Virus record (IMG/VR): IMGVR_UViG_3300046063_000017
Span: 1-31,626 of that record
Direction: 5' to 3' (one strand)
Source of the DNA: a virus
Taxonomy: Duplodnaviria; Caudoviricetes
Length of the DNA: 31,626 nt
The position numbers and the translations under genes were made by a program. This document shows, piece by piece, positions 1-31,463 of this stretch. The first letter of the stretch is position 1. Each line of letters starts with the position of its first letter. The notes beneath the pieces were generated by a model, which was not told the DNA's origin, ran no database searches, and saw nothing but the letters and a program-made list of their open reading frames with translations.

Positions 1-92
1 CACAGGACGGGAGCGCCTGTGACAGCGCCACAGTCCACCGAGAGACGAGTCCGAGGACCGGACAGATGACGCTCTCGGCGTATTCGGACTGA
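1..92 (+). CDS. tnpB: 3' end of IS1341/IS605-type TnpB (partial)
   Basis: The frame from nt 3 reads QDGSACDSATVHRETSPRTGQMTLSAYSD* (TGA 90-92), resembling haloarchaeal TnpB C-terminal tails. It is immediately followed by a typical IS605-family right end. Confidence 0.65.
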   Translation, partial: QDGSACDSATVHRETSPRTGQMTLSAYSD

Positions 93-156
93 AACCTTCC
101 AAGCCGGATTCCCACCGTGTGGGAAGCCCCGCCGTTTACGGCGGGGAGGATGTCAC
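1..156 (+). mobile_element. Right end of an IS200/IS605-family element (omega/reRNA-encoding region)
   Basis: Hairpin TTCCCAC-cgt-GTGGGAA (109-125), subterminal hairpin CCCCGCCG-ttta-CGGCGGGG (127-146), then AGGATG and terminal TCAC (153-156). This is the characteristic haloarchaeal IS605/IS1341 right-end layout. Confidence 0.8.
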
Positions 157-168
157 GTGATGTAGTGA

Positions 169-657
169 CTACAGTTCGTTGGCGTCTGGGTCCAGATTCG
201 GTGCAGGGAACGTGATGGAGTGGACGCCATCGAATTCTTCGAGCGAGCTCTGTACGTCGACTATCGCACCAGACCGGTTCGCGGGAGACGGCGCCCATGT
301 GATATCGATATTGAGTATCGACTCAACACGTGGGTCCGCATCGGGGCCGATCGTCCGCCGAATCTCGCGACGGAACGAGCCCACCGATTCGCCGAGCATC
401 CGGAAGATGTCTCGACCATAGTCCGGCCGGATCGGATCAGACCGGGGTACGTCCGGGCCTTCTGGAGTGAGAAGTGCGACTTTGAGGTCTTGGATCACAG
501 CATCCTGATCATAAACGCGAGCAAAGCTCCCTCGCCGAACTATCAGGTCGCCGTCTGCGTCAAGCGCCAGTGCTTTTCCGTAGCGTGAACCGGGTTCGTA
601 TCCCTCTCGGCGTGCCTTGCGCTCGGCCGGCGTGAGAAGCTTATCGTCGTCTGACAT
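169..657 (-). CDS. Baseplate wedge subunit (gp25/gp46-like)
   Basis: 162 aa with LDADGDL...VIQDLKVALLT...PDYG...DPRVESI, a gp25/Mu gp46-like pattern. Lies downstream of the spike gene. Confidence 0.65.
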   Translation of the reverse strand: MSDDDKLLTPAERKARREGYEPGSRYGKALALDADGDLIVRRGSFARVYDQDAVIQDLKVALLTPEGPDVPRSDPIRPDYGRDIFRMLGESVGSFRREIRRTIGPDADPRVESILNIDITWAPSPANRSGAIVDVQSSLEEFDGVHSITFPAPNLDPDANEL

Positions 658-12512: not shown

Positions 12513-14093
12513 TTACGCCGTCTGCGTAGTGTCGGGGCTACGGGTCCGAGTCTGGATATCCAGCTCGAACCGATGGACGCTTCCGTTGATCCGGTAAGTG
12601 ATATCGATGACTCCCCAGATACGATTGTCACGTCGGGTAGCGTCGATCTCGTCGGCCGGAGGAACGTTGATCTGGAGGTTCGAGTACGGACCAGACCGGT
12701 TGGCTGCCTTCGGCTTGAGGAGCTGCTTGGACCTCAGAGACGTCTTGTCCGTGGCCGTCGTGATGTCCGAATCGGTTTCGGAATCCGAGTCCGAGTCCGA
12801 GCCCGAGCCCGAGCCCGAGTCCGAATCCGAATCTGACCCCGACGTGGATTCTGTCGTCGAGTTGGGGTCGTACACACCCACCGTATTGTACCTTTCGAGG
12901 GTGTTCAGGAGCTCGTTGTGGATCATCACCCGCCCGCGCTTATTGAACGGGATCTGGGTATCGAGGCTGAGCGACACCAGCGCCGCGGTCGCCTTCTCCT
13001 CGACGAACGACTCCGTCCGACGCACGTCGAGATACCTGTATTCCGAACTGGCTCCGAGAGTCGTCAGATCATTGCTGAGGACCCACGTTCCCTGCACGTT
13101 TTCGAGAACGTTCATGGGTCCGACGTGCTCGGAGTTCGCCGTAGACATCCCGCCCTCGAACGTGTCTGACGTTTCGGGGTCGCCGATCATGGCGGTGTTG
13201 AAGCCCCCGTTGACACTCAGGCCCGAGAACCCACGGCCTTCCATGCTCGGGTCTTCCCAGACGCGCTGAGTGACGAGCAGACCAGCGATGTAGGCCGCAA
13301 GATCGTCAGAGGTCTTGTGGGCGGTGAAGGACACGTCCGCGCTCGGGACGTATCCAGCGATCTGGTGCATATCCTTCCGGTAGTCCCGATCAGAGGAATA
13401 GTCCGCCGCGTTGGCACCCACGAACGGGACGTGGATTCCGTTGCCACTGGCCCAGGCCGTCAGTTCGTCAGCGTCCCCGATTCCCGACTTGTTGAGCCGA
13501 GCGTTCGAGAGGGTAGCAACGTCCACTTCGTCTTGGTTGAGTTGGTCGAACGCGGGCGTCCAGTCGGTGTAAGTATAAGAGACCTGGATACCAGAACCGG
13601 TGCCCGAGGATGAGGTCCCCGTCACGACCTCTCCCGTGTCAGTGTTGACGTGTGCTTCCTCTGTACCCGGCGTGGTGTCGGAGTCCGGGGGAGATTCGGT
13701 CACGTAGATGACCGTCATACTCGTCCCGTCGACCGAGACAGTCACGTCAGCAGACTCCGAGATCGGAGTGTTAGATACCGTTCCGGAGCTGACACTCGTG
13801 GTGTCGGAATCGCCGAGAACTTCGTCGGTCACCGACGTGATCTCGGGAGCCAAGATCGTGTAGTAGGCTGCCCCCATGGCGTCGAGGGCCTGTGCGGAGA
13901 CGTGGGCATCACTGCCATCCCCGAAGTCGACCAATACGTCCTGTGCAGAGTCGTATCGGATCGGTTGGTTGAACGATGCGTCCCCTGGGGGTGCAGTCTC
14001 CATCGGACTGAAGATCACCACGTCGTTGAACGTCTCCCGCGGTACGGAGGCCGTGGTAGTAGACGTATTGATAGATACGCGAGGCGAAGGCAT
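12513..14093 (-). CDS. Contractile tail sheath protein
   Basis: RVSINT...RYDSAQDVLVDFG.GSDA at the N-terminus, YLDVRRT...IPFNKRGRVMI, and C-terminal RRDNR...ITYRINGSVHRFEL are sheath hallmarks. Confidence 0.85.
   Translation of the reverse strand: MPSPRVSINTSTTTASVPRETFNDVVIFSPMETAPPGDASFNQPIRYDSAQDVLVDFGDGSDAHVSAQALDAMGAAYYTILAPEITSVTDEVLGDSDTTSVSSGTVSNTPISESADVTVSVDGTSMTVIYVTESPPDSDTTPGTEEAHVNTDTGEVVTGTSSSGTGSGIQVSYTYTDWTPAFDQLNQDEVDVATLSNARLNKSGIGDADELTAWASGNGIHVPFVGANAADYSSDRDYRKDMHQIAGYVPSADVSFTAHKTSDDLAAYIAGLLVTQRVWEDPSMEGRGFSGLSVNGGFNTAMIGDPETSDTFEGGMSTANSEHVGPMNVLENVQGTWVLSNDLTTLGASSEYRYLDVRRTESFVEEKATAALVSLSLDTQIPFNKRGRVMIHNELLNTLERYNTVGVYDPNSTTESTSGSDSDSDSGSGSGSDSDSDSETDSDITTATDKTSLRSKQLLKPKAANRSGPYSNLQINVPPADEIDATRRDNRIWGVIDITYRINGSVHRFELDIQTRTRSPDTTQTA
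12767..12838. repeat. Hexamer tandem repeat (TCCGAG/CCCGAG-type) encoding a Ser-Asp/Ser-Gly tract in the sheath
   Basis: gaatccgagtccgagtccgagcccgagcccgagcccgagtccgaatccgaatc; protein SGSDSDSDSGSGSGSDSDSDSETDSD. Confidence 0.85.
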
Positions 14094-14109
14094 AGAGAGT
14101 GGTTAGGTA

Positions 14110-14460
14110 TGGTCTGCTCAGATTGCAGATGGGGTGGGCGAGCAACAACCACCCTTCTCGGAGTGCAATTCTGTGGGTCTCCGAAGATAGAGCATTGTTT
14201 CTTCGGGTCCACAACCGCCGGGATCGCAAATGAAGGGCACTTCCATGCACCCGTCAGGAGTTGAACCTGATAAGGGGCAACCTGCCCTCCAAGCGGATGC
14301 CCCACACCTCTCTATCAGAGGAGATCTATCGAGTGCAATATGGCCTCCAAATAGAGGCACAGCCCACGCCCGGCACGACCGGGCAGGCGGCGCTACCGCG
14401 TAGGCTTCTCGCAACCACTGTCGAGTAAACAGGTTGCCCCGTACGAAACGAGTGGCTGAC
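14110..14460 (-). ncRNA. Candidate ~350-nt highly structured RNA containing a tRNA-like domain
   Basis: Intergenic gap in a tightly packed operon with at least 10 helices, e.g. 14451-58/14412-19, 14379-84/14368-73, 14354-58/14343-47, 14200-06/14181-87, 14149-54/14132-37. G-U wobbles favour the minus strand. Confidence 0.65.
14246..14336 (-). other. 91-nt tRNA-like element (acceptor stem plus T-arm, non-canonical D and anticodon region)
   Basis: GCACTCG...CGGGTGC-A acceptor (7 bp) and TCAGG-TTCAACT-CCTGA T-arm. The interior has two hairpins but no canonical anticodon arm. Confidence 0.7.
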
Positions 14461-14462
14461 CG

Positions 14463-15116
14463 TCAGAAACGGACCTCGATCCGTTTCGGTTCAGCGTGCT
14501 GGCTGGCTTTGAGATCGATATCGAGTCCAGCCACCGTTTCGATCTCGTCGACGTACGTGAGGCTATAGTTCAACCGAAGCGAGATCGAGTATCTAACAAC
14601 GTCTTCGTCGCCCACATAGCCACTTACGTCCGTTGCAGACCCGATGTGCTGTCGGGGAATCTCGACGCGTACGTCGGTCGAATCTACAAGAGAGTCATCC
14701 GCTAGCTCATTCGGGAATTCGTACCGGAGATACCGTTCTAGCGGCGGTATGAACTGACTGGCCCGCTCGCCCGGTGACGTGTTCGTGATCTCGTGATTCC
14801 CTTTGATTACAGTGGTGAGATTGAGGGTGTCATAGACGGGCGTCCCATACACTTCCTCAACCGTCGTCGAAGTGCCGTCTCGGATCTCGCGTGGCCCTAA
14901 CGAGAGCTCGTCTGGATCCCGTACCACACCGGTCGGATCCAAATTCGCCATCAGCAGATGATAGACCTGCTGATCGGGTTCAGTGCCTTCGTTCTTCCAC
15001 TTCTGCGTGATCTCAAACCGTCCTTCCTGGGTTGTACCAGAGTCGTCGGTATAGGTGAGATCAAATGCGTCCGGGAGGGCGTCGAAAACCCGGTTCTGAG
15101 TTGAATATGGGATCAC
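14463..15116 (-). CDS. Tail completion/terminator protein
   Basis: 217 aa, the last neck gene before the sheath. Function inferred from synteny. Confidence 0.55.
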   Translation of the reverse strand: MIPYSTQNRVFDALPDAFDLTYTDDSGTTQEGRFEITQKWKNEGTEPDQQVYHLLMANLDPTGVVRDPDELSLGPREIRDGTSTTVEEVYGTPVYDTLNLTTVIKGNHEITNTSPGERASQFIPPLERYLRYEFPNELADDSLVDSTDVRVEIPRQHIGSATDVSGYVGDEDVVRYSISLRLNYSLTYVDEIETVAGLDIDLKASQHAEPKRIEVRF

Positions 15117-19128: not shown

Positions 19129-21840
19129 CTACTCGGAGTCCTGCCAGTCCGACATGGTCCCGACCGTCGAGGGACCGTCGGCATCAGACTCCTCCGCTCG
19201 GTTTCCGACCGTCGTTGTCGCCGACTCGGGCGTACGGGCGCCGAAGTCCGTCCCGGACGATGGCTGAAGCTCGCTCGCCGTTGCCTCCAGAGCGTCGTCA
19301 GACATGGCCTCGACAGTTTCCTCGTCGTACGCGTCCGTGTTCGAGAGGATCGTATTCTGGAGGCGCTCGCGCTTGGTCTGCTTTTCCTCGCGATGGTTGG
19401 CCGCGACCTCCTTGAGACCCTCCGACTCGAGCTTTGCGTCGATCTTGGACTCAACAGAATCCTCGAATTTCTCGGTGCCGCCGTTTTCGAGGACGCTGTC
19501 GAACTTCTCCTCCATAGCCTCTATCCGCTGTTCGAGGTCGTTGACGTCGGGCTCATCGTCATCCGAGTCGTCGCTGTCGTCCGAGGCGGCGTCGGGTTCA
19601 TCGTCGTCCGAGCCATCACCGTCGTCCGAGGCGGCGTCGGGCTCATCGTCGTCCGAGCCATCACCGTCGTTGGTGTCTGCCCCCTCCAGATCAGCGAGAT
19701 TGGAGAGCAGTTCGTCGTTCAGTTCCTTCAGATCGTCGACGGAGATGCCCGTCTTGTTCGAGATAGCTTCTAGGTCGAAGTCGCTCATGGATGATGTGTC
19801 GTTGTCGTTGTCGTTCGCGTCCGCCCCAGTGTCCGAGTCGTCCACGCCGGCGTCCGTACCGGTGGAGTCATCATCATCCGCAGAGGCGGACCCAGATTCG
19901 GTCACAGCACTATCTGTCCCCGAGTCGTCATTGTGGGAGTGGCCGTGGTCGGCACAGGTGCAGGCACCGCCATCCGACTCACAGCCACATCCTCGGGTTT
20001 CGATAGGGCCGGAGTCGGTGCTGGCCTCTGAACCCTCACCGGGAGAGTCCGCGACCGCCTCTCGACGGAGGGCATTGGCCAGCCGGTCGATCAGGCTGGC
20101 CTCGTTGGCGTTGGCTTCGACGTCTTCGGGATCGGGGAATTGCTCGATTTCAGTCAGAGTATCACGCCGAACAGTCTCCGTACTCCCGGAGTCAGACCAT
20201 TCCTCGCCATTGTCCGGTGTATAGGGTTGTACGAGAACGATAGCGTCAGATTCGTCCTCCAGTTCGTCCACAACGATACCAAATCGTTGTCCAGAATCCG
20301 ACTCCCAATTGACTGCATCCCCCTCCTTGACGTTGACTGTCGGAGAGTCCTCGGCAGAGTCTTCCCCGCCAGATTCCGTACCGGTAGGGCCACCCTCCGA
20401 AGACGGAGAGTCGAATTCGTTCAGAGTCGGCGTCTGCTCCCGTCGGAGTGCATCGGCGAAGGCGTTAGCCAGCCGATCGATGGGAGTCGACCCGTTAGCT
20501 TTGACATCTGACGCTTCGGGAAGCGCGTCGATCACGGTGATCTTGCCCCGACTAACGGTTATTTCCCCACCGACACGTTCCCACTCAGTGCCTTCTACTA
20601 ACGCGTACGGCTCAACCATTACAATCGCGTCCGACCGATCCTCTAAGGTGTCGACGATAGTACCGTACCGCTTCCCATCGTCTGTTTCCCAGTAGACCGT
20701 GTCCCCTTCCGACAGATTCACCGTCGGGGATGGGGAGTCGTCGGAGCCCTCGTCGGTCTGGTTCCCCTCAAACGACTGGTCGAACTCGTCTCGGAGCAGA
20801 CTCTTTGTCTTGCTCTCAACGGAGTCCGCCTGGTCCTCGGAAATTCCCGCAGATCCGAGAGTGGAGAGAACAGATTCCAGAGCACTCTCCGAAAGATCGT
20901 TCGAGGACGGGTCAACCACGGGGAAATACACCAGTTCGGTGTATTGATCCGCGTCCGGATCACCAAGAAGCGATTTCTTAGCGATCCACTCGGCGGCGTC
21001 CGACGAGAGATCGGATACATCGGACGGACGATCGTCCGGTTCGTTTGCGTCGGTGTGCGAGTAGTAGGCGCTGATGTAATCGTCGAGACTGGGTCGTTCC
21101 CATTCTTCGTCAGAGGTTGTACTGTCGTACTCGGGAGTCCGAGCGTTCTGTAGAACTTTGAGCTTCATGTTGAGATAGACACGCTCGGCGCTCTCGCCCG
21201 CAGGTCCGTCAGCGATGTAGCCTCCGACGAGAGGTTCGACCCCAAACTCAGACGAAGATTGGTCGGCATTGGCGACCGCGGCTTGCGTTCCGGTGCCACA
21301 ACCATCTTCGACGCTGCATTTACCGGGGCCGAGATCCCCCGGGAGTAGAGCGAGGTGGTCGGGTTTCAGATCGACCTTTACCTGTTGTCGGTACTCGCCA
21401 TCGTAGTACCCGGGTTCTCCTTCCTCGGCGCGGTAGGCCGTACTGACTTCCAACGGCTCTCCGTTTTCGAGCATATCCACGGCCATCTGGGCGTACCCAC
21501 CGATCGAACTAGATTGTTCGAGATCGATCCACAGCTCGCCATCAAGCGACCTCGTACTCGAATCGTAGTTGACCGAGTAGAAATCACCGACGACAGCGTT
21601 GTCGACGACCTCGCGGGAACGCGCCGAGATGTAATCGCCGTGGGCGTTGGTCGGATGGCCGATCGGAAGTGGCATCCGAGACCACTGCCATGCGCTCTTT
21701 TGCCATTCCTCGCCGGGGACGTAGCCCCCATTGAGATTCATGGCCCGAACGGCTGTCACATCCGTGACCAGATATTCACGGCCTTGGAGCGTCTCATAAC
21801 GCACGTCGGCCGTGTTGATCTCGTTTGTGACTAACTCCAT
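19129..21840 (-). CDS. Prohead protease (DUF2213-like) fused to extra domains and scaffold
   Basis: N-terminal W...PLPIGHP, LEVSTAY and LKPDHLALLP...GKCSVEDGCG motifs; C-terminal acidic coiled coil; position upstream of the decoration and MCP genes. Confidence 0.75.
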   Translation of the reverse strand: MELVTNEINTADVRYETLQGREYLVTDVTAVRAMNLNGGYVPGEEWQKSAWQWSRMPLPIGHPTNAHGDYISARSREVVDNAVVGDFYSVNYDSSTRSLDGELWIDLEQSSSIGGYAQMAVDMLENGEPLEVSTAYRAEEGEPGYYDGEYRQQVKVDLKPDHLALLPGDLGPGKCSVEDGCGTGTQAAVANADQSSSEFGVEPLVGGYIADGPAGESAERVYLNMKLKVLQNARTPEYDSTTSDEEWERPSLDDYISAYYSHTDANEPDDRPSDVSDLSSDAAEWIAKKSLLGDPDADQYTELVYFPVVDPSSNDLSESALESVLSTLGSAGISEDQADSVESKTKSLLRDEFDQSFEGNQTDEGSDDSPSPTVNLSEGDTVYWETDDGKRYGTIVDTLEDRSDAIVMVEPYALVEGTEWERVGGEITVSRGKITVIDALPEASDVKANGSTPIDRLANAFADALRREQTPTLNEFDSPSSEGGPTGTESGGEDSAEDSPTVNVKEGDAVNWESDSGQRFGIVVDELEDESDAIVLVQPYTPDNGEEWSDSGSTETVRRDTLTEIEQFPDPEDVEANANEASLIDRLANALRREAVADSPGEGSEASTDSGPIETRGCGCESDGGACTCADHGHSHNDDSGTDSAVTESGSASADDDDSTGTDAGVDDSDTGADANDNDNDTSSMSDFDLEAISNKTGISVDDLKELNDELLSNLADLEGADTNDGDGSDDDEPDAASDDGDGSDDDEPDAASDDSDDSDDDEPDVNDLEQRIEAMEEKFDSVLENGGTEKFEDSVESKIDAKLESEGLKEVAANHREEKQTKRERLQNTILSNTDAYDEETVEAMSDDALEATASELQPSSGTDFGARTPESATTTVGNRAEESDADGPSTVGTMSDWQDSE
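19545..19670. repeat. 45-bp tandem repeat (about 2.8 copies) in the scaffold region
   Basis: Units start at 19545, 19590 and 19635 and encode DGDGSDDDEPDAASD-like repeats. Confidence 0.85.
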
Positions 21841-21973
21841 GTGGTGTTGCCGAACCTGCTCGTAGAGCCGTCAGGGGACGATGCGCCGGGAATAGTCTGA
21901 TAGGTCATGTCATCGTTGCCCCGTGGGAGACCTCCGGACGTGGCCCGGGTACGGCCACCCCCGTCATTGGATA

Positions 21974-22016
21974 TGTCCTCGAACGGGATCGAACCGTTCT
22001 TGCCGCCATCAAGGAC
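21974..22016 (-). other. 43-nt mini-tRNA (t-element)
   Basis: GTCCTTG-ATGGCGGCAAG-AACGG-TTCGATC-CCGTT-CGAGGAC-A: 7-bp acceptor, 5-bp T-stem, canonical T-loop and discriminator A, with no D or anticodon arm. Confidence 0.8.
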
Positions 22017-22084
22017 CGATACACTCCAGATAGAGGAGAGAGGAGATAGAGAGGAAATGCCAGAGAGTAGATGCCTATGAGATC

Positions 22085-22253
22085 TGTGTCTTATCCGACA
22101 CACGTACAGAAGCCTCCGGTGGAACTGTTGGCTTACGCGAAGATGTTGGCCGCAGTTTTGCCGGCTTCCCACCGACGCCAGAGCATCTTGGGTCGCCACC
22201 GGAGAAGCCTCGGTCTCGCCGTGAGCGAGATGGCGGCGTCACCGCACCGAGGC
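22085..22253 (-). ncRNA. Candidate structured RNA upstream of the t-element
   Basis: Three-way junction at 22207-22253, 9-bp stem 22196-22204/22114-22122 enclosing nested stems, and hairpin 22085-22102. Confidence 0.55.
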
Positions 22254-22297
22254 GCCCGCAGATAGTTTACGACACTACCGATGTAATCCAGATAGAG

Positions 22298-22627: not shown

Positions 22628-22656
22628 ATCGAAAACCGTTATCTATCGTACCGAAT

Positions 22657-22865
22657 TGGCCGGCCACAGAATCTCACTGCACGCTGGTTTGGCTCCTCGG
22701 GTTATCCCCGAGTTACTGCCTCTCACTCTGTAGGCGCACCATACCCACACAAATGGAGCGTCTACCATGTTCTGACCAGCGTTTGTCTCGGCCGGCCATG
22801 ACGGTTGTCAGAAACCGCCTACGCGAGCTACACACCCCTCGGTGGGGAAAACCCCACGTCATTGG
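22657..22865 (-). ncRNA. Candidate ~200-nt structured RNA
   Basis: Nested stems 22790-98/22657-65 and 22775-82/22681-88, inner stems 22753-60/22735-42 and 22707-12/22696-701, hairpin 22842-22857, and a crossing pair 22816-22/22730-36. Confidence 0.6.
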
Positions 22866-22877
22866 GAGAGCACCTGT

Positions 22878-28643: not shown

Positions 28644-29414
28644 TCAGTTGAGCGTCTCGTCAGAGTGGTACTGCACGAACCGCTTCCACTGACGTAGGTT
28701 GTGTTCGTCGATCTCGTCCGGATCGACCATCCGGTGATCGTCCGGCCGATAGTAGTCCTGCATCTCCTGTCCGTCGAACACGACCATTTTCCCGTTCAGA
28801 CTCCCGTTGAACAGCCACGACGTGCTGTCAGAGGAGTCGAAACCATACTGTTCCGGGTCTTCCAACGGAGTGAACCCGAGCGCGTGGACCTTACAGTCGT
28901 GTTCGTGCGCCTTCTCCGTGAACCACGGGAGAACTTTGAACTCGCCACTCGTGATCTCGCCGCCAGCGATCCCCCCGATGGCGACGTAATCATAGTCGCG
29001 GACGAGATCAAGCCATGCGTCCTTCCCGCGGTTCTTGTGCCAGACAGGGATGCAGTCCTTCCCCGTCCCCCGCTCCAGTCGGTTTCGGAGTTCGTGTACG
29101 CGCCCGAGACCGACCAACGAGTCGATGTCCAACTCGAAGAAGTAATCGAAGTCGTGCCGATTGATGAACTGGACGTAGTCGTCGACGTAGTCGTCCCAGT
29201 CGATATCTTCGGACCCACTGGCGTCCTGCATGAAGGTGAACGCCCCTGAGTCAAGCATGAACTGCTTGCAGTGATCCGACTTCGCGTACGCGACCTGCCA
29301 GTCCTCGATGTACTCGAACGATTCGAGCACGTACGGGAACTTGTGCTCGTAGAACGACTCCGCCTTTGTGTCCGTCCCGGCAACGTGAATCCGGAGGCCG
29401 TTCCACCCGGACAT
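28644..29414 (-). CDS. DpdA/TGT-like transglycosylase (7-deazaguanine insertion into DNA)
   Basis: MLDSGAFT, ELDID, IPVWH, YVAIGGIA, VHALG and FDSSDSTSW are TGT-barrel motifs; adjacent to que genes. Confidence 0.75.
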   Translation of the reverse strand: MSGWNGLRIHVAGTDTKAESFYEHKFPYVLESFEYIEDWQVAYAKSDHCKQFMLDSGAFTFMQDASGSEDIDWDDYVDDYVQFINRHDFDYFFELDIDSLVGLGRVHELRNRLERGTGKDCIPVWHKNRGKDAWLDLVRDYDYVAIGGIAGGEITSGEFKVLPWFTEKAHEHDCKVHALGFTPLEDPEQYGFDSSDSTSWLFNGSLNGKMVVFDGQEMQDYYRPDDHRMVDPDEIDEHNLRQWKRFVQYHSDETLN

Positions 29415-29419
29415 AGGAG

Positions 29420-30019
29420 CTATTCGATCTCGTGCTCGACGGTGAACTCCGTCTCACACTCCGGGCACTCGACGGCTATCTCGACGGTCTCCGTCTGTGT
29501 GTCGTCTCCGGTATCCTCGTCGTCTTCGTCGATCTCGTCGTCCTCCTCGAAGAAATCATCCAGACTAAACTCCGAGGTCTCCATCACGGCATCGACTTCG
29601 TCCTCCTCGAAGGCCGTGTCTTCGACCTCAAAGTCGTCTTGACGGTCGAGATCCTCGAATTCGACCGCCAGCGTATCCATGTCCCAGCCCGACTCCATGC
29701 TGGTCTTGTTGTCCGCGATCCGTGCGCCCTTGATCTCGGCCTCGTCCAGATCCGGTCGCGGGAGGACAGGAACCTCGTCCAACCCGAGACGCTTGAGGGC
29801 CTTGAACCGGCCGTGGCCCTTGATGATCTCACCGTCGCCATCGACTACGATCGGTTGATCCATCCCGTAGTTCTTAATCGACGACTGGATCTTTTCGATC
29901 TGCTCCTCCGGGTGCTCCTTCGGATTGTTGACGTACGGATGAACGTCGTCAGTCGACCAGATCTCGATCGTGTCTGCAACGGCCTTGGGGACCACGTCAC
30001 CGACGGTCAGCTCACTCAT
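29420..30019 (-). CDS. ParB-like N-terminal domain protein with C-terminal Zn ribbon
   Basis: PYVNNPKEH, SIKNYG..QPIVVD...IIKGHGR..A, RIADNK and CPECETEF. Confidence 0.85.
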   Translation of the reverse strand: MSELTVGDVVPKAVADTIEIWSTDDVHPYVNNPKEHPEEQIEKIQSSIKNYGMDQPIVVDGDGEIIKGHGRFKALKRLGLDEVPVLPRPDLDEAEIKGARIADNKTSMESGWDMDTLAVEFEDLDRQDDFEVEDTAFEEDEVDAVMETSEFSLDDFFEEDDEIDEDDEDTGDDTQTETVEIAVECPECETEFTVEHEIE

Positions 30020-30677
30020 CCGCCGACACCCCCTTCACCAGATCGAAAAACTCCTCTCGGAGCGCAGGATCCTCACGGGCCTTGCCCCGGAGGGCGCTGG
30101 TCCGAGTCATGGCATTGGGCTCCTGAACCCCCCGGAGCGCCATGCACTCATGCTCGGCCTCCAGGCAGACGATCACTGCCTGTGGATCGAGTTCTTCGTC
30201 GACAGCATCCGCGATCTGTGTAGTGAGCCGTTCCTGAACCTGTGGACGGCGAGCGTAGTCGTCGACTACGCGGGAGAACTTCGACAGCCCCACGATCTCG
30301 TCGCCGGGGACGTATCCGATGTGGGCCTGCCCTCGGAACGGGAGGAAGTGATGGGCACACATCGACGCAACATCGATCCCATCGACGATCACCATCTCGT
30401 GACTCCCGTCCGAGTCGAAAGTCGTCTCTAGATGGCGTCGAGGATCAACCCACAGTCCCGCGAACAGTTCTTCGACACGGGACTCCGCAACACGCCGCGG
30501 CGTCTCGTCGAGGTGTTCAGAGTCGCCGTTGAGGTTGAGTGCCTCGATAAAGTCCACGAACGCCGACTTGACCGGTTCTAGATCGGGCGTGCAATCCGTC
30601 TGTTTGGCCTCTGACGGCAAATCCGTGGGTGCGGTTGTTCCGTTCGGTTCGGGTGTAGGAGATGAGTTTTGATTCAT
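30012..30677 (-). CDS. folE: GTP cyclohydrolase I
   Basis: ETPRRVA, SMCAHHFLPF.G.AHIGY.P, GLSKFSR, RRPQVQERLT.QIA and HECMALRGV. Confidence 0.95.
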   Translation of the reverse strand: MNQNSSPTPEPNGTTAPTDLPSEAKQTDCTPDLEPVKSAFVDFIEALNLNGDSEHLDETPRRVAESRVEELFAGLWVDPRRHLETTFDSDGSHEMVIVDGIDVASMCAHHFLPFRGQAHIGYVPGDEIVGLSKFSRVVDDYARRPQVQERLTTQIADAVDEELDPQAVIVCLEAEHECMALRGVQEPNAMTRTSALRGKAREDPALREEFFDLVKGVSADE

Positions 30678-30707
30678 AGAGATTCCAACAAATAAACGCG
30701 AGATCCG

Positions 30708-31463
30708 CTATACCCCGGTCGCCTCGTCGTAGCCACTAACTTGCAGACGAGGAGAGAACTGGTATCCGTGCTCTTGGCACAGATCCATAACCTCGGGGTA
30801 ATTGTCAAGCAGATCGTCTCGGGACGCACCGGCCGGCATCAGCATAATATCCGACGGAGCGATCCCGAAACGCCGGGCGAGATCCTTAATCTCGTCTATG
30901 TCTTGGTCCCGGGAGACAACGAATTTGAACGTCGCTCGGGGGTCGGCCGCGAACCGGTTGATCGGTTCGGGGACGATCCGGCGTGACTCCGCCATCCCCG
31001 AGTTGGACAGTTTGACGCTGACGTTGTAGTGGTTGACGTAGTCGTCGAACGGAGTCTTGGGGCTGATCGTCCCGTTGGTCTCCACCTCAACGGAGATCCG
31101 CTCGTGTTCTTTGAGCAGCCTCCCGAGTTTGTCTTGGTGGAGCATCGGCTCTCCCCCCGTGAGGATCAGGTTCGCCGTCCCGTCGTTAAGCGACCCGAGA
31201 TGTCCATTCCGGACCCATTCATCGATCAGGTCCGTGGCGTTGACCGGTTCGGGATTCCGATATGTCTCTATCGTATCGCACAACCACGTGGCGTCGTCCT
31301 CGGTCTCCATCTCCTCTTGGGGATGATCCGGGTCATCCGGGTTACCGCACTTGAGATTGCAGTATCCGAGACGAAGGAACAACGCTGGTTTCCCGGCGGT
31401 CGGTCCCTCGCCCTGGATCGACATGAACTGCTCCGCAACCGGGAGCGTTATGTCGGGATTCAT
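30708..31463 (-). CDS. queE: 7-carboxy-7-deazaguanine synthase (radical SAM)
   Basis: FMSIQGEG, FLRLGYCNLKC...WLCDT (expanded CxxxC...C), LTGGEP, VETNGT and SPRLQ. Confidence 0.92.
   Translation of the reverse strand: MNPDITLPVAEQFMSIQGEGPTAGKPALFLRLGYCNLKCGNPDDPDHPQEEMETEDDATWLCDTIETYRNPEPVNATDLIDEWVRNGHLGSLNDGTANLILTGGEPMLHQDKLGRLLKEHERISVEVETNGTISPKTPFDDYVNHYNVSVKLSNSGMAESRRIVPEPINRFAADPRATFKFVVSRDQDIDEIKDLARRFGIAPSDIMLMPAGASRDDLLDNYPEVMDLCQEHGYQFSPRLQVSGYDEATGV

Follow-up and report, generated by a model that had tools for sequence, protein, structure and literature searches.

The 369-nt gap before the tail sheath gene of a haloarchaeal myovirus contains a tRNA-like domain that is probably a viral t-element, cut by host RNase P and tRNase Z so that the late transcript is split. 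The window, by which we mean the whole stretch of DNA analyzed, is a 31.6-kb fragment (31,626 nt) of this virus, and the coordinates of its features are collected in Table 1 with those of comparable elements from related viruses.

A non-coding gap upstream of the sheath gene

The sequencing runs that contain window DNA are halite metagenomes; no RNA run is among those listed, which weighs neither for nor against expression. All genes used in the analysis (n = 30) are on the minus strand, and the gene content comprises 7-deazaguanine synthesis, terminase, portal, head, neck, sheath, tape measure, and baseplate. The sheath protein is 30–36% identical to those of phiH1, ChaoS9, and phiCh1 by tblastn. 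The 217-aa gene upstream of the gap had no match in family searches and shows 30% identity to the gene at the same place in genome G192. The gap between these two genes (14462-14094) is 369 nt long, compared with 19–36 nt in phiH1, phiCh1, and ChaoS9. It is present in two further sequencing runs, of which X2 spans the gap and X3 covers most of it (14207-14465), so it was not created by assembly. The contigs of five DNA runs show almost no variation, and therefore no population covariation can be read from them; a change at 14364 in one low-depth contig, which may be an error, breaks a pair of a 5' flank stem.

Two open reading frames of 98 aa and 42 aa cross the gap. Their codon scores were -0.23 and -0.18 per codon, under the first percentile of real gene stretches, and the lowest of the 30 real genes scored +0.056. 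A translated ORF across the gap is not likely, in agreement with the first-pass annotation, which had treated this region as non-coding.

The sheath protein itself contains an insertion of some 60 aa made up of Ser/Asp/Gly repeats (window 12760-12850), whose position is common only to P0002 among the aligned relatives. The nearest proteins are P0002 and P0029 (52% and 60%).

Table 1. Positions of the genes and RNA features discussed in the text (window coordinates unless a record or locus is named)
Feature	Position	Strand	Basis or remark
Tail sheath gene, 526 aa	12513..14093	-	PHROG 205 and 20601; tblastn phiH1/ChaoS9/phiCh1
3' flank, 152 nt, hairpins	14094..14245	-	z -1.4, 15/200 shuffles as good
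91-nt tRNA-like domain	14336-14246 (G14336 to A14246)	-	descriptor match
Domain acceptor stem	14336-14330 with 14253-14247	-	7/7 pairs
Domain D-like hairpin			loop UGAUA, without GG
Domain extended arm, 30 nt	14303-14274	-
Domain T-arm	14270-14254	-	5/5 pairs, loop UUCAACU
Domain discriminator	A14246	-	CCA not encoded
5' flank, hairpin units 14458-14412, 14406-14361, 14358-14343	14338..14462	-	z -3.2, 1/200 shuffles as good
Alternative 5' half	14427..14454	-	gives ~209-nt tRNA-like fold, 3' end unchanged
217-aa gene in tail-completion position	14463..15116	-	ORF; position as tco of phiH1, phiCh1, ChaoS9
903-aa acidic gene opening head block	19129..21840	-	ORF; precedes decoration and major capsid genes
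Second, minimal tRNA-like element, 43 nt	21974..22016	-	descriptor match
phiCh1 element, 78 nt	record 55078-55155; L088 15079-15156	+ (L088)	confirmed in named record
phiH1 element	record 55043-55118; L089 40044-40119	+ (L089)
Two-member class, 136-140-nt inner part	L036 4213-4384, L048 2756-2923	-	haloarchaeal proviral contigs

A tRNA-like domain with an intact top half

The first-pass annotation had placed a tRNA-like domain within the gap, and this domain proved real. Its top half, composed of the acceptor stem and the T-arm, was found in none of 20,000 shuffles of the gap and in none of 200 shuffles of the whole window, which is far beyond chance. The T-arm has the GGTTCRANYCC motif of t-elements and was predicted with a probability of at least 0.93 in every folding context. 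When the domain was folded in isolation, the free minimum-energy structure was a cloverleaf. The remainder departs from a canonical tRNA: U8 is missing (positions 8-9 are A-U), the D-loop lacks GG, the inner part measures 59 nt, and a 5-bp anticodon stem with a 7-nt loop is absent. No bulge-helix-bulge splice motif was detected in the arm of the domain, and three loose matches elsewhere cross the cloverleaf helices. ARAGORN made no tRNA call for the domain, as had been anticipated in the first-pass annotation.

In equilibrium folding of the full gap with ViennaRNA, the acceptor stem had a probability of 0.01–0.02. In the nascent transcript, the value ranged from 0.12 to 0.85 depending on the upstream length, reaching 0.85 with 150 nt of the upstream gene. 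We considered the low equilibrium value as a refutation of the domain and rejected it, since genuine tRNA controls score low too; 8 of 20 genuine haloarchaeal tRNAs were below 0.05 in the same test.

Folding of the flanks and an alternative fold

The whole region folds better than its shuffles (z -3.57, 0/100). However, the opposite strand gave z -3.46, and 7 of 143 windows of 220 nt in the genome reached z<=-3, the gap window being the second. Folding energy alone is therefore weak evidence, and we discarded the energy of the whole gap as a test that discriminates. Analyzed by segment, the predictions indicate that the 5' flank and the domain (z -3.0, 0/200 shuffles as good) are structured and that the 3' flank is not clearly so, with a score at the shuffle level. 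The first-pass annotation was right in calling the gap structured.

The stems named in the first-pass annotation are present at their minus-strand coordinates, and five of the six that were scored had pairing probabilities of 0.89–0.99 in the whole gap (CAGCCACU/AGUGGUUG, AGCCUAC/GUGGGCU, GCCCGG/CCGGGC, CCGAAGA/UCUUCGG, and UCUGC/GCAGA), whereas GCCUC/GAGGC reached only 0.2. The suggested tertiary pairs, CCGCC (14390-86) with GGCGG (14219-15) and loop AACAA with loop UUGUU, exist as sequence but fall within what chance supplies, as the gap contains 94 complementary 5-mer pairs versus 71 in shuffles; CCGCC is moreover predicted to be paired locally.

An alternative 5' half gives the domain a second possible fold, in which 14454-14449 replaces the 5' strand of the acceptor and 14440-14427 pairs with 14287-14274 as a 14-bp helix. 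Its 11-bp Watson-Crick helix was found in 12 of 1000 shuffles. The outer, 209-nt fold had a value of 0.84 when folding began at the stop codon and 0.05–0.13 when more upstream sequence was added, so the balance between inner and outer folds depends on the amount of upstream sequence included. The alternative 5' half could represent the true fold, a switch, or the remains of a duplication; in the models, the inner and outer folds predict an identical 3' cut.

A second element in the window and a counterpart in G192

The second element of the window consists of a 7-bp acceptor, an 11-nt linker, a T-arm, and a discriminator A, and it lies 133 nt before the 903-aa gene. A 122-aa frame overlapping it scores as non-coding (-0.11). 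The 903-aa gene had no PHROG match, while its neighbors match head decoration and major head families; from its position, it is likely a head maturation or scaffold gene. The surrounding 457-nt gap (window 21841-22297, minus strand) contains this element and a pyrimidine-rich tract, and its folding is at the shuffle level (z -0.77). About 600 nt upstream of the second element, another non-coding gap of 250 nt (window 22628-22877, minus strand) forms a long closing helix with a multiloop (z -2.7, 1/200 shuffles); it lacks a T-arm, and a search of 920 kb yielded no homolog of it.

We examined 25 sheath loci (22 distinct), with one further locus lacking a tblastn match. The gap upstream of the sheath gene was approximately 18–200 nt in 24 of the 25, and it was 369 nt only in L020 (genome G192), which is the closest sheath relative among the loci examined (52%). 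The L020 gap holds an acceptor and T-arm top half with a 15-nt linker (1/20,000 shuffles), and alignment of the window and G192 gaps showed no shared sequence. In G192, several small genes separate the tail-completion gene from the gap upstream of the sheath gene, which indicates that the element accompanies the sheath gene. The distance to the sheath ATG is 152 nt for the window element and 279 nt for the G192 element.

Three further elements were found in G192; one precedes a neck-region gene, and two follow a long gene that is putatively the tape measure. One of the latter two is an Rfam tRNA match with a 106-nt insert, and one G192 match relies on a distant acceptor alone, its local minihelix being mismatched. 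Gaps around G192 elements are structured (372 nt, z -3.45; 608 nt, z -3.57 with 20 shuffles). The 608-nt gap (L031 14520-15127, minus strand) is hairpin-rich and has a mini tRNA-like element at its end, 5 nt before an ATG.

Other searches extended the set of relatives little. IMG/VR scans with single proteins or the tail-completion protein yielded no close relative, a metagenome scan yielded one distant locus with a short gap, and a family-level search across 232 genomes contributed no more. A T-arm pattern search of IMG/VR gave 21 loci, and ARAGORN called tRNAs in 19 of them, the exceptions being L069 and L077, which were included in the nhmmer search for homologs of the gap.

Similar elements and covariation in other haloviruses

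A strict descriptor of the element was applied to 16 halovirus and provirus sets (685,391 nt) and gave 13 matches, compared with 0.42 expected from shuffles. Matches between genes include those of phiH1, phiCh1, and HATV-3 and the "tRNA-Pro" of HF1; one match (G360) looks like an ordinary tRNA-Cys. Eight of the 16 sets, including CGphi46 and the second-closest sheath relative (L033), had no strict match, so related viruses can dispense with the element. The elements share a constant top half, and the length of their inner part ranges between 11 and 140 nt. Twelve of the 13 listed elements have A as discriminator, and CCA is encoded in none. Many elements end 2–26 nt before a start codon: 17 nt for HF1 terL, 2 nt for HATV-3, 25–26 nt for phiCh1 and phiH1, and 5 nt in G192. 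A class with an imperfect acceptor precedes the gene in the prohead-protease position of ChaoS9 and of four other loci. Judging from the sequences compared, only the tRNA top half recurs across viruses, between genes and with unrelated flanks.

Covariation was analyzed in two sets of four and two sequences, which are not orthologs of the window element and from which the structures themselves were read. In the four orthologs of the phiH1/phiCh1 element, 97.8% of cells were paired (0/500 shuffles for cells), and 7 of 23 pairs had compensatory changes on both sides; the "anticodon" loop of this element is only 4 nt. In the two-member class, 9 of 36 pairs were compensatory, three of them in the acceptor. 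Both members (L036 and L048) have a 12-nt motif before the T-arm and keep the inner sequence and pairs.

The phiCh1 and phiH1 elements are located inside the hypothetical ORFs PhiCh1_435 and PhiH1_455, directly before two transmembrane genes. A reference title cited in the available text of PMC4284463 states that phiCh1 contains DNA and RNA. If the elements act as proposed here, these annotated ORFs overlap an RNA element.

Proposed cleavage of the late transcript

By its modeled structure, the window domain has the features of a t-element and likely works like one, with cleavage as a prediction. Host RNase P would cleave at the 14337/14336 junction, and host tRNase Z would cleave directly behind A14246. 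With both elements of the window cut, the transcript would fall into three messages with separate ends and stabilities: one for packaging, one of 7.6 kb for head and neck, and one for sheath, tube, and tail. In haloarchaea, RNA decay proceeds from ends that lack protection. The 5' hairpins would guard the 3' end newly formed on the upstream head-neck message, the 152-nt 3' flank would become the 5' leader of the sheath message, and the excised piece of 91 nt (or 209 nt in the alternative fold) would be a by-product.

The element is on the coding strand, the same as all 30 genes used, and promoter scans found no TATA-like box in the gap; a sigma-70 promoter scan was set aside as not applicable to archaea. 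Among the five other sheath relatives scanned, four (L005, L015, L018, and L019) share a BRE/TATA-like box located 37–48 nt ahead of the sheath ATG; no such box is present at this place in the window or in G192. It looks as if promoter and t-element were two routes to a separate sheath message. In our analysis, the features kept among the elements are those read by tRNA-processing nucleases, namely acceptor length, T-loop, and discriminator A.

Published work on processing is compatible with this proposal. For t-elements, it is established that the top half is enough: in the available text of PMC4326828, RNase P and tRNase Z free an RNA that lies between two t-elements, in vivo in Haloferax volcanii, and PMC1920247 maps mRNA ends at t-elements of plant mitochondria. 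For HF2, the accessible part of PMC8707807 contrasts a 35-kb morphogenesis transcript with Northern species of 0.5–9 kb and suggests processing; these species fit a reading in which such elements are cut.

Some observations do not fit easily. The window copy and its G192 counterpart before the sheath gene are not placed near an ATG, unlike other copies, and the long structured flanks in the window and G192 exceed the needs of a cut signal. As the domain lacks the D-loop GG, recognition of its elbow by RNase P is uncertain.

Alternative explanations

We regard as rather unlikely a combined reading, in which diverse tRNA-like elements at module borders are a general means in tailed haloarchaeal viruses of having the late transcript carved by host RNase P and tRNase Z, and the sheath element is in addition a two-state switch between the 91-nt and 209-nt folds. 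The T-arm would be shared by both states, and the switch would set the amount of sheath message released or would free a functional structured RNA.

It is doubtful that the gap is a stand-alone structured RNA of 91, 209, or 350 nt, perhaps released by the tRNA-processing enzymes, packaged, or bound to a virion protein. The folding of the 5' flank, the well-predicted majority of stems, the long structured gaps around G192 elements, and the inner sequence and pairs kept in the two-member class point in its direction. GOLLD RNAs sometimes carry linker tRNAs, according to the accessible part of bioRxiv 2024.12.08.627333. However, Rfam (4227 families) had no gap match at E<=1, in line with the earlier view that the RNA belongs to no catalogued family. 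Searches of 50,697 phage records for a homolog of the gap returned noise only, and 401 haloarchaeal genomes gave only three matches of 30–36 nt, none inside the tRNA-like domain. The flanks likewise had no homolog in 920 kb of loci searched with nhmmer. Together with the shuffle-level 3' flank and the chance-level tertiary pairs, these results do not sustain the suggestion in the first-pass annotation of a single GOLLD-like non-coding RNA of about 350 nt. Furthermore, minimal 43-nt copies serve in comparable positions.

An element that acts in cis without being cut, or as a tRNA mimic, is improbable. It could be a translation enhancer, a fold switch tuning the sheath gene, or a tRNA mimic bound by a host tRNA-binding protein; the two mutually exclusive folds share their 3' half, the 14-bp helix is unusual (12/1000), and many copies abut start codons. 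Nevertheless, the kept features are those of a processing substrate, including the discriminator A, the window copy lies far from the ATG, and such elements are efficiently cut in Haloferax, as described in the available text of PMC4326828.

We consider it quite improbable that the domain is only what is left of a captured tRNA gene, in decay and without a function today. The distorted D and anticodon arms, the degenerate CACUC and GGGGCA repeats, which suggest local duplication, and the many relatives without the element would agree with decay. In contrast, all 12 pairs of the top half and the T-loop are intact while the remainder is reshaped, and this selective pattern recurs in several viruses with different sequences and compensatory changes.

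It is very improbable that the domain is a working tRNA, with or without an intron, or that the gap encodes a protein: the isolated domain does fold as a cloverleaf and two frames do cross the gap, but the canonical tRNA features and an arm splice motif are missing, ARAGORN and Rfam are silent, and the codon scores are those of non-coding DNA.

An attP site copied from the 3' end of a host tRNA is hardly credible and was largely refuted, although a partial tRNA-Thr serves as attP in viruses of the HF1 group (available parts of PMC7230728 and PMC8707807), because the 25-nt T-arm and acceptor sequence matched none of a sample of 201 haloarchaeal genomes with <=3 mismatches and the G192 counterpart matched only itself in its own host genome; in addition, several different copies per virus lie inside the structural operon, and the 31 ORFs scanned in this fragment include no integrase.

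Comparison with known systems

The preferred reading, that the domain is a t-element cut out of the late transcript, can be compared with several known systems. The t-element upstream of the 5S rRNA of Haloferax volcanii (cited in the available text of PMC4326828) is likewise tRNA-like and lies within a longer haloarchaeal transcript. It is described as being processed by both RNase P and tRNase Z, whereas the window element is viral, lies between modules of a late operon, has a predicted cut, contains a 59-nt inner part, and has two occurrences in the window.

The t-elements of plant mitochondria, as presented in the accessible part of PMC1920247, are non-canonical cloverleafs with a GGTTCRANYCC T-arm; mRNA ends coincide with them, and leaders can be long (cox1, -241). 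They belong to an organelle and their ends are mapped, whereas the window belongs to an archaeal virus and its ends are predicted.

The "tRNA-Pro(TGG)" upstream of terL in the HF1 group is likewise a conserved aberrant element between late genes. The available parts of PMC7230728 and PMC8707807 describe this atypical tRNA-Pro as aberrant, leave its function open, and contain no label as a processing signal. The HF1 record (L066 32858-32928) annotates it on the plus strand, but the orientation of its T-arm and acceptor is that of the minus strand and of terL. It is near-canonical in size, and no sequence similarity to the window element was found.

GOLLD and ROOL are likewise structured phage RNAs that lie near or contain tRNAs. 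In the accessible part of bioRxiv 2024.12.08.627333, they are bacterial, many GOLLD RNAs exceed 800 nt, and covarying pseudoknots and cage formation are described; the window gap has 369 nt and matches no covariance model in Rfam.

Our literature search, with most subscription journals outside its coverage, found no account of viral mRNA being processed at t-elements. The mechanism that leads from a halovirus late transcript of 20–35 kb to short Northern messages is open in the available text of PMC8707807. If the window element is cut, it would represent punctuation by tRNA-like elements, in the style of mitochondria, in an archaeal virus, with the cut sites predicted to the nucleotide. Such cleavage would also account for the aberrant tRNA-Pro of the HF1 group. 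The viruses phiCh1, phiH1, HF1, and HATV-3, which carry such elements, are cultured.

Other features of the window

Two regions at the far ends of the window were also noted. At 28644-31463 (minus strand), genes resembling QueE, GTP cyclohydrolase I, ParB, and a tRNA-ribosyltransferase form what we take to be a 7-deazaguanine DNA modification cluster. At 9-169 (plus strand), a weak Rfam match to HgcC (37 bits, with a cut-off of 50) has a sot-type end and is presumably the end of an IS200/IS605-type element.
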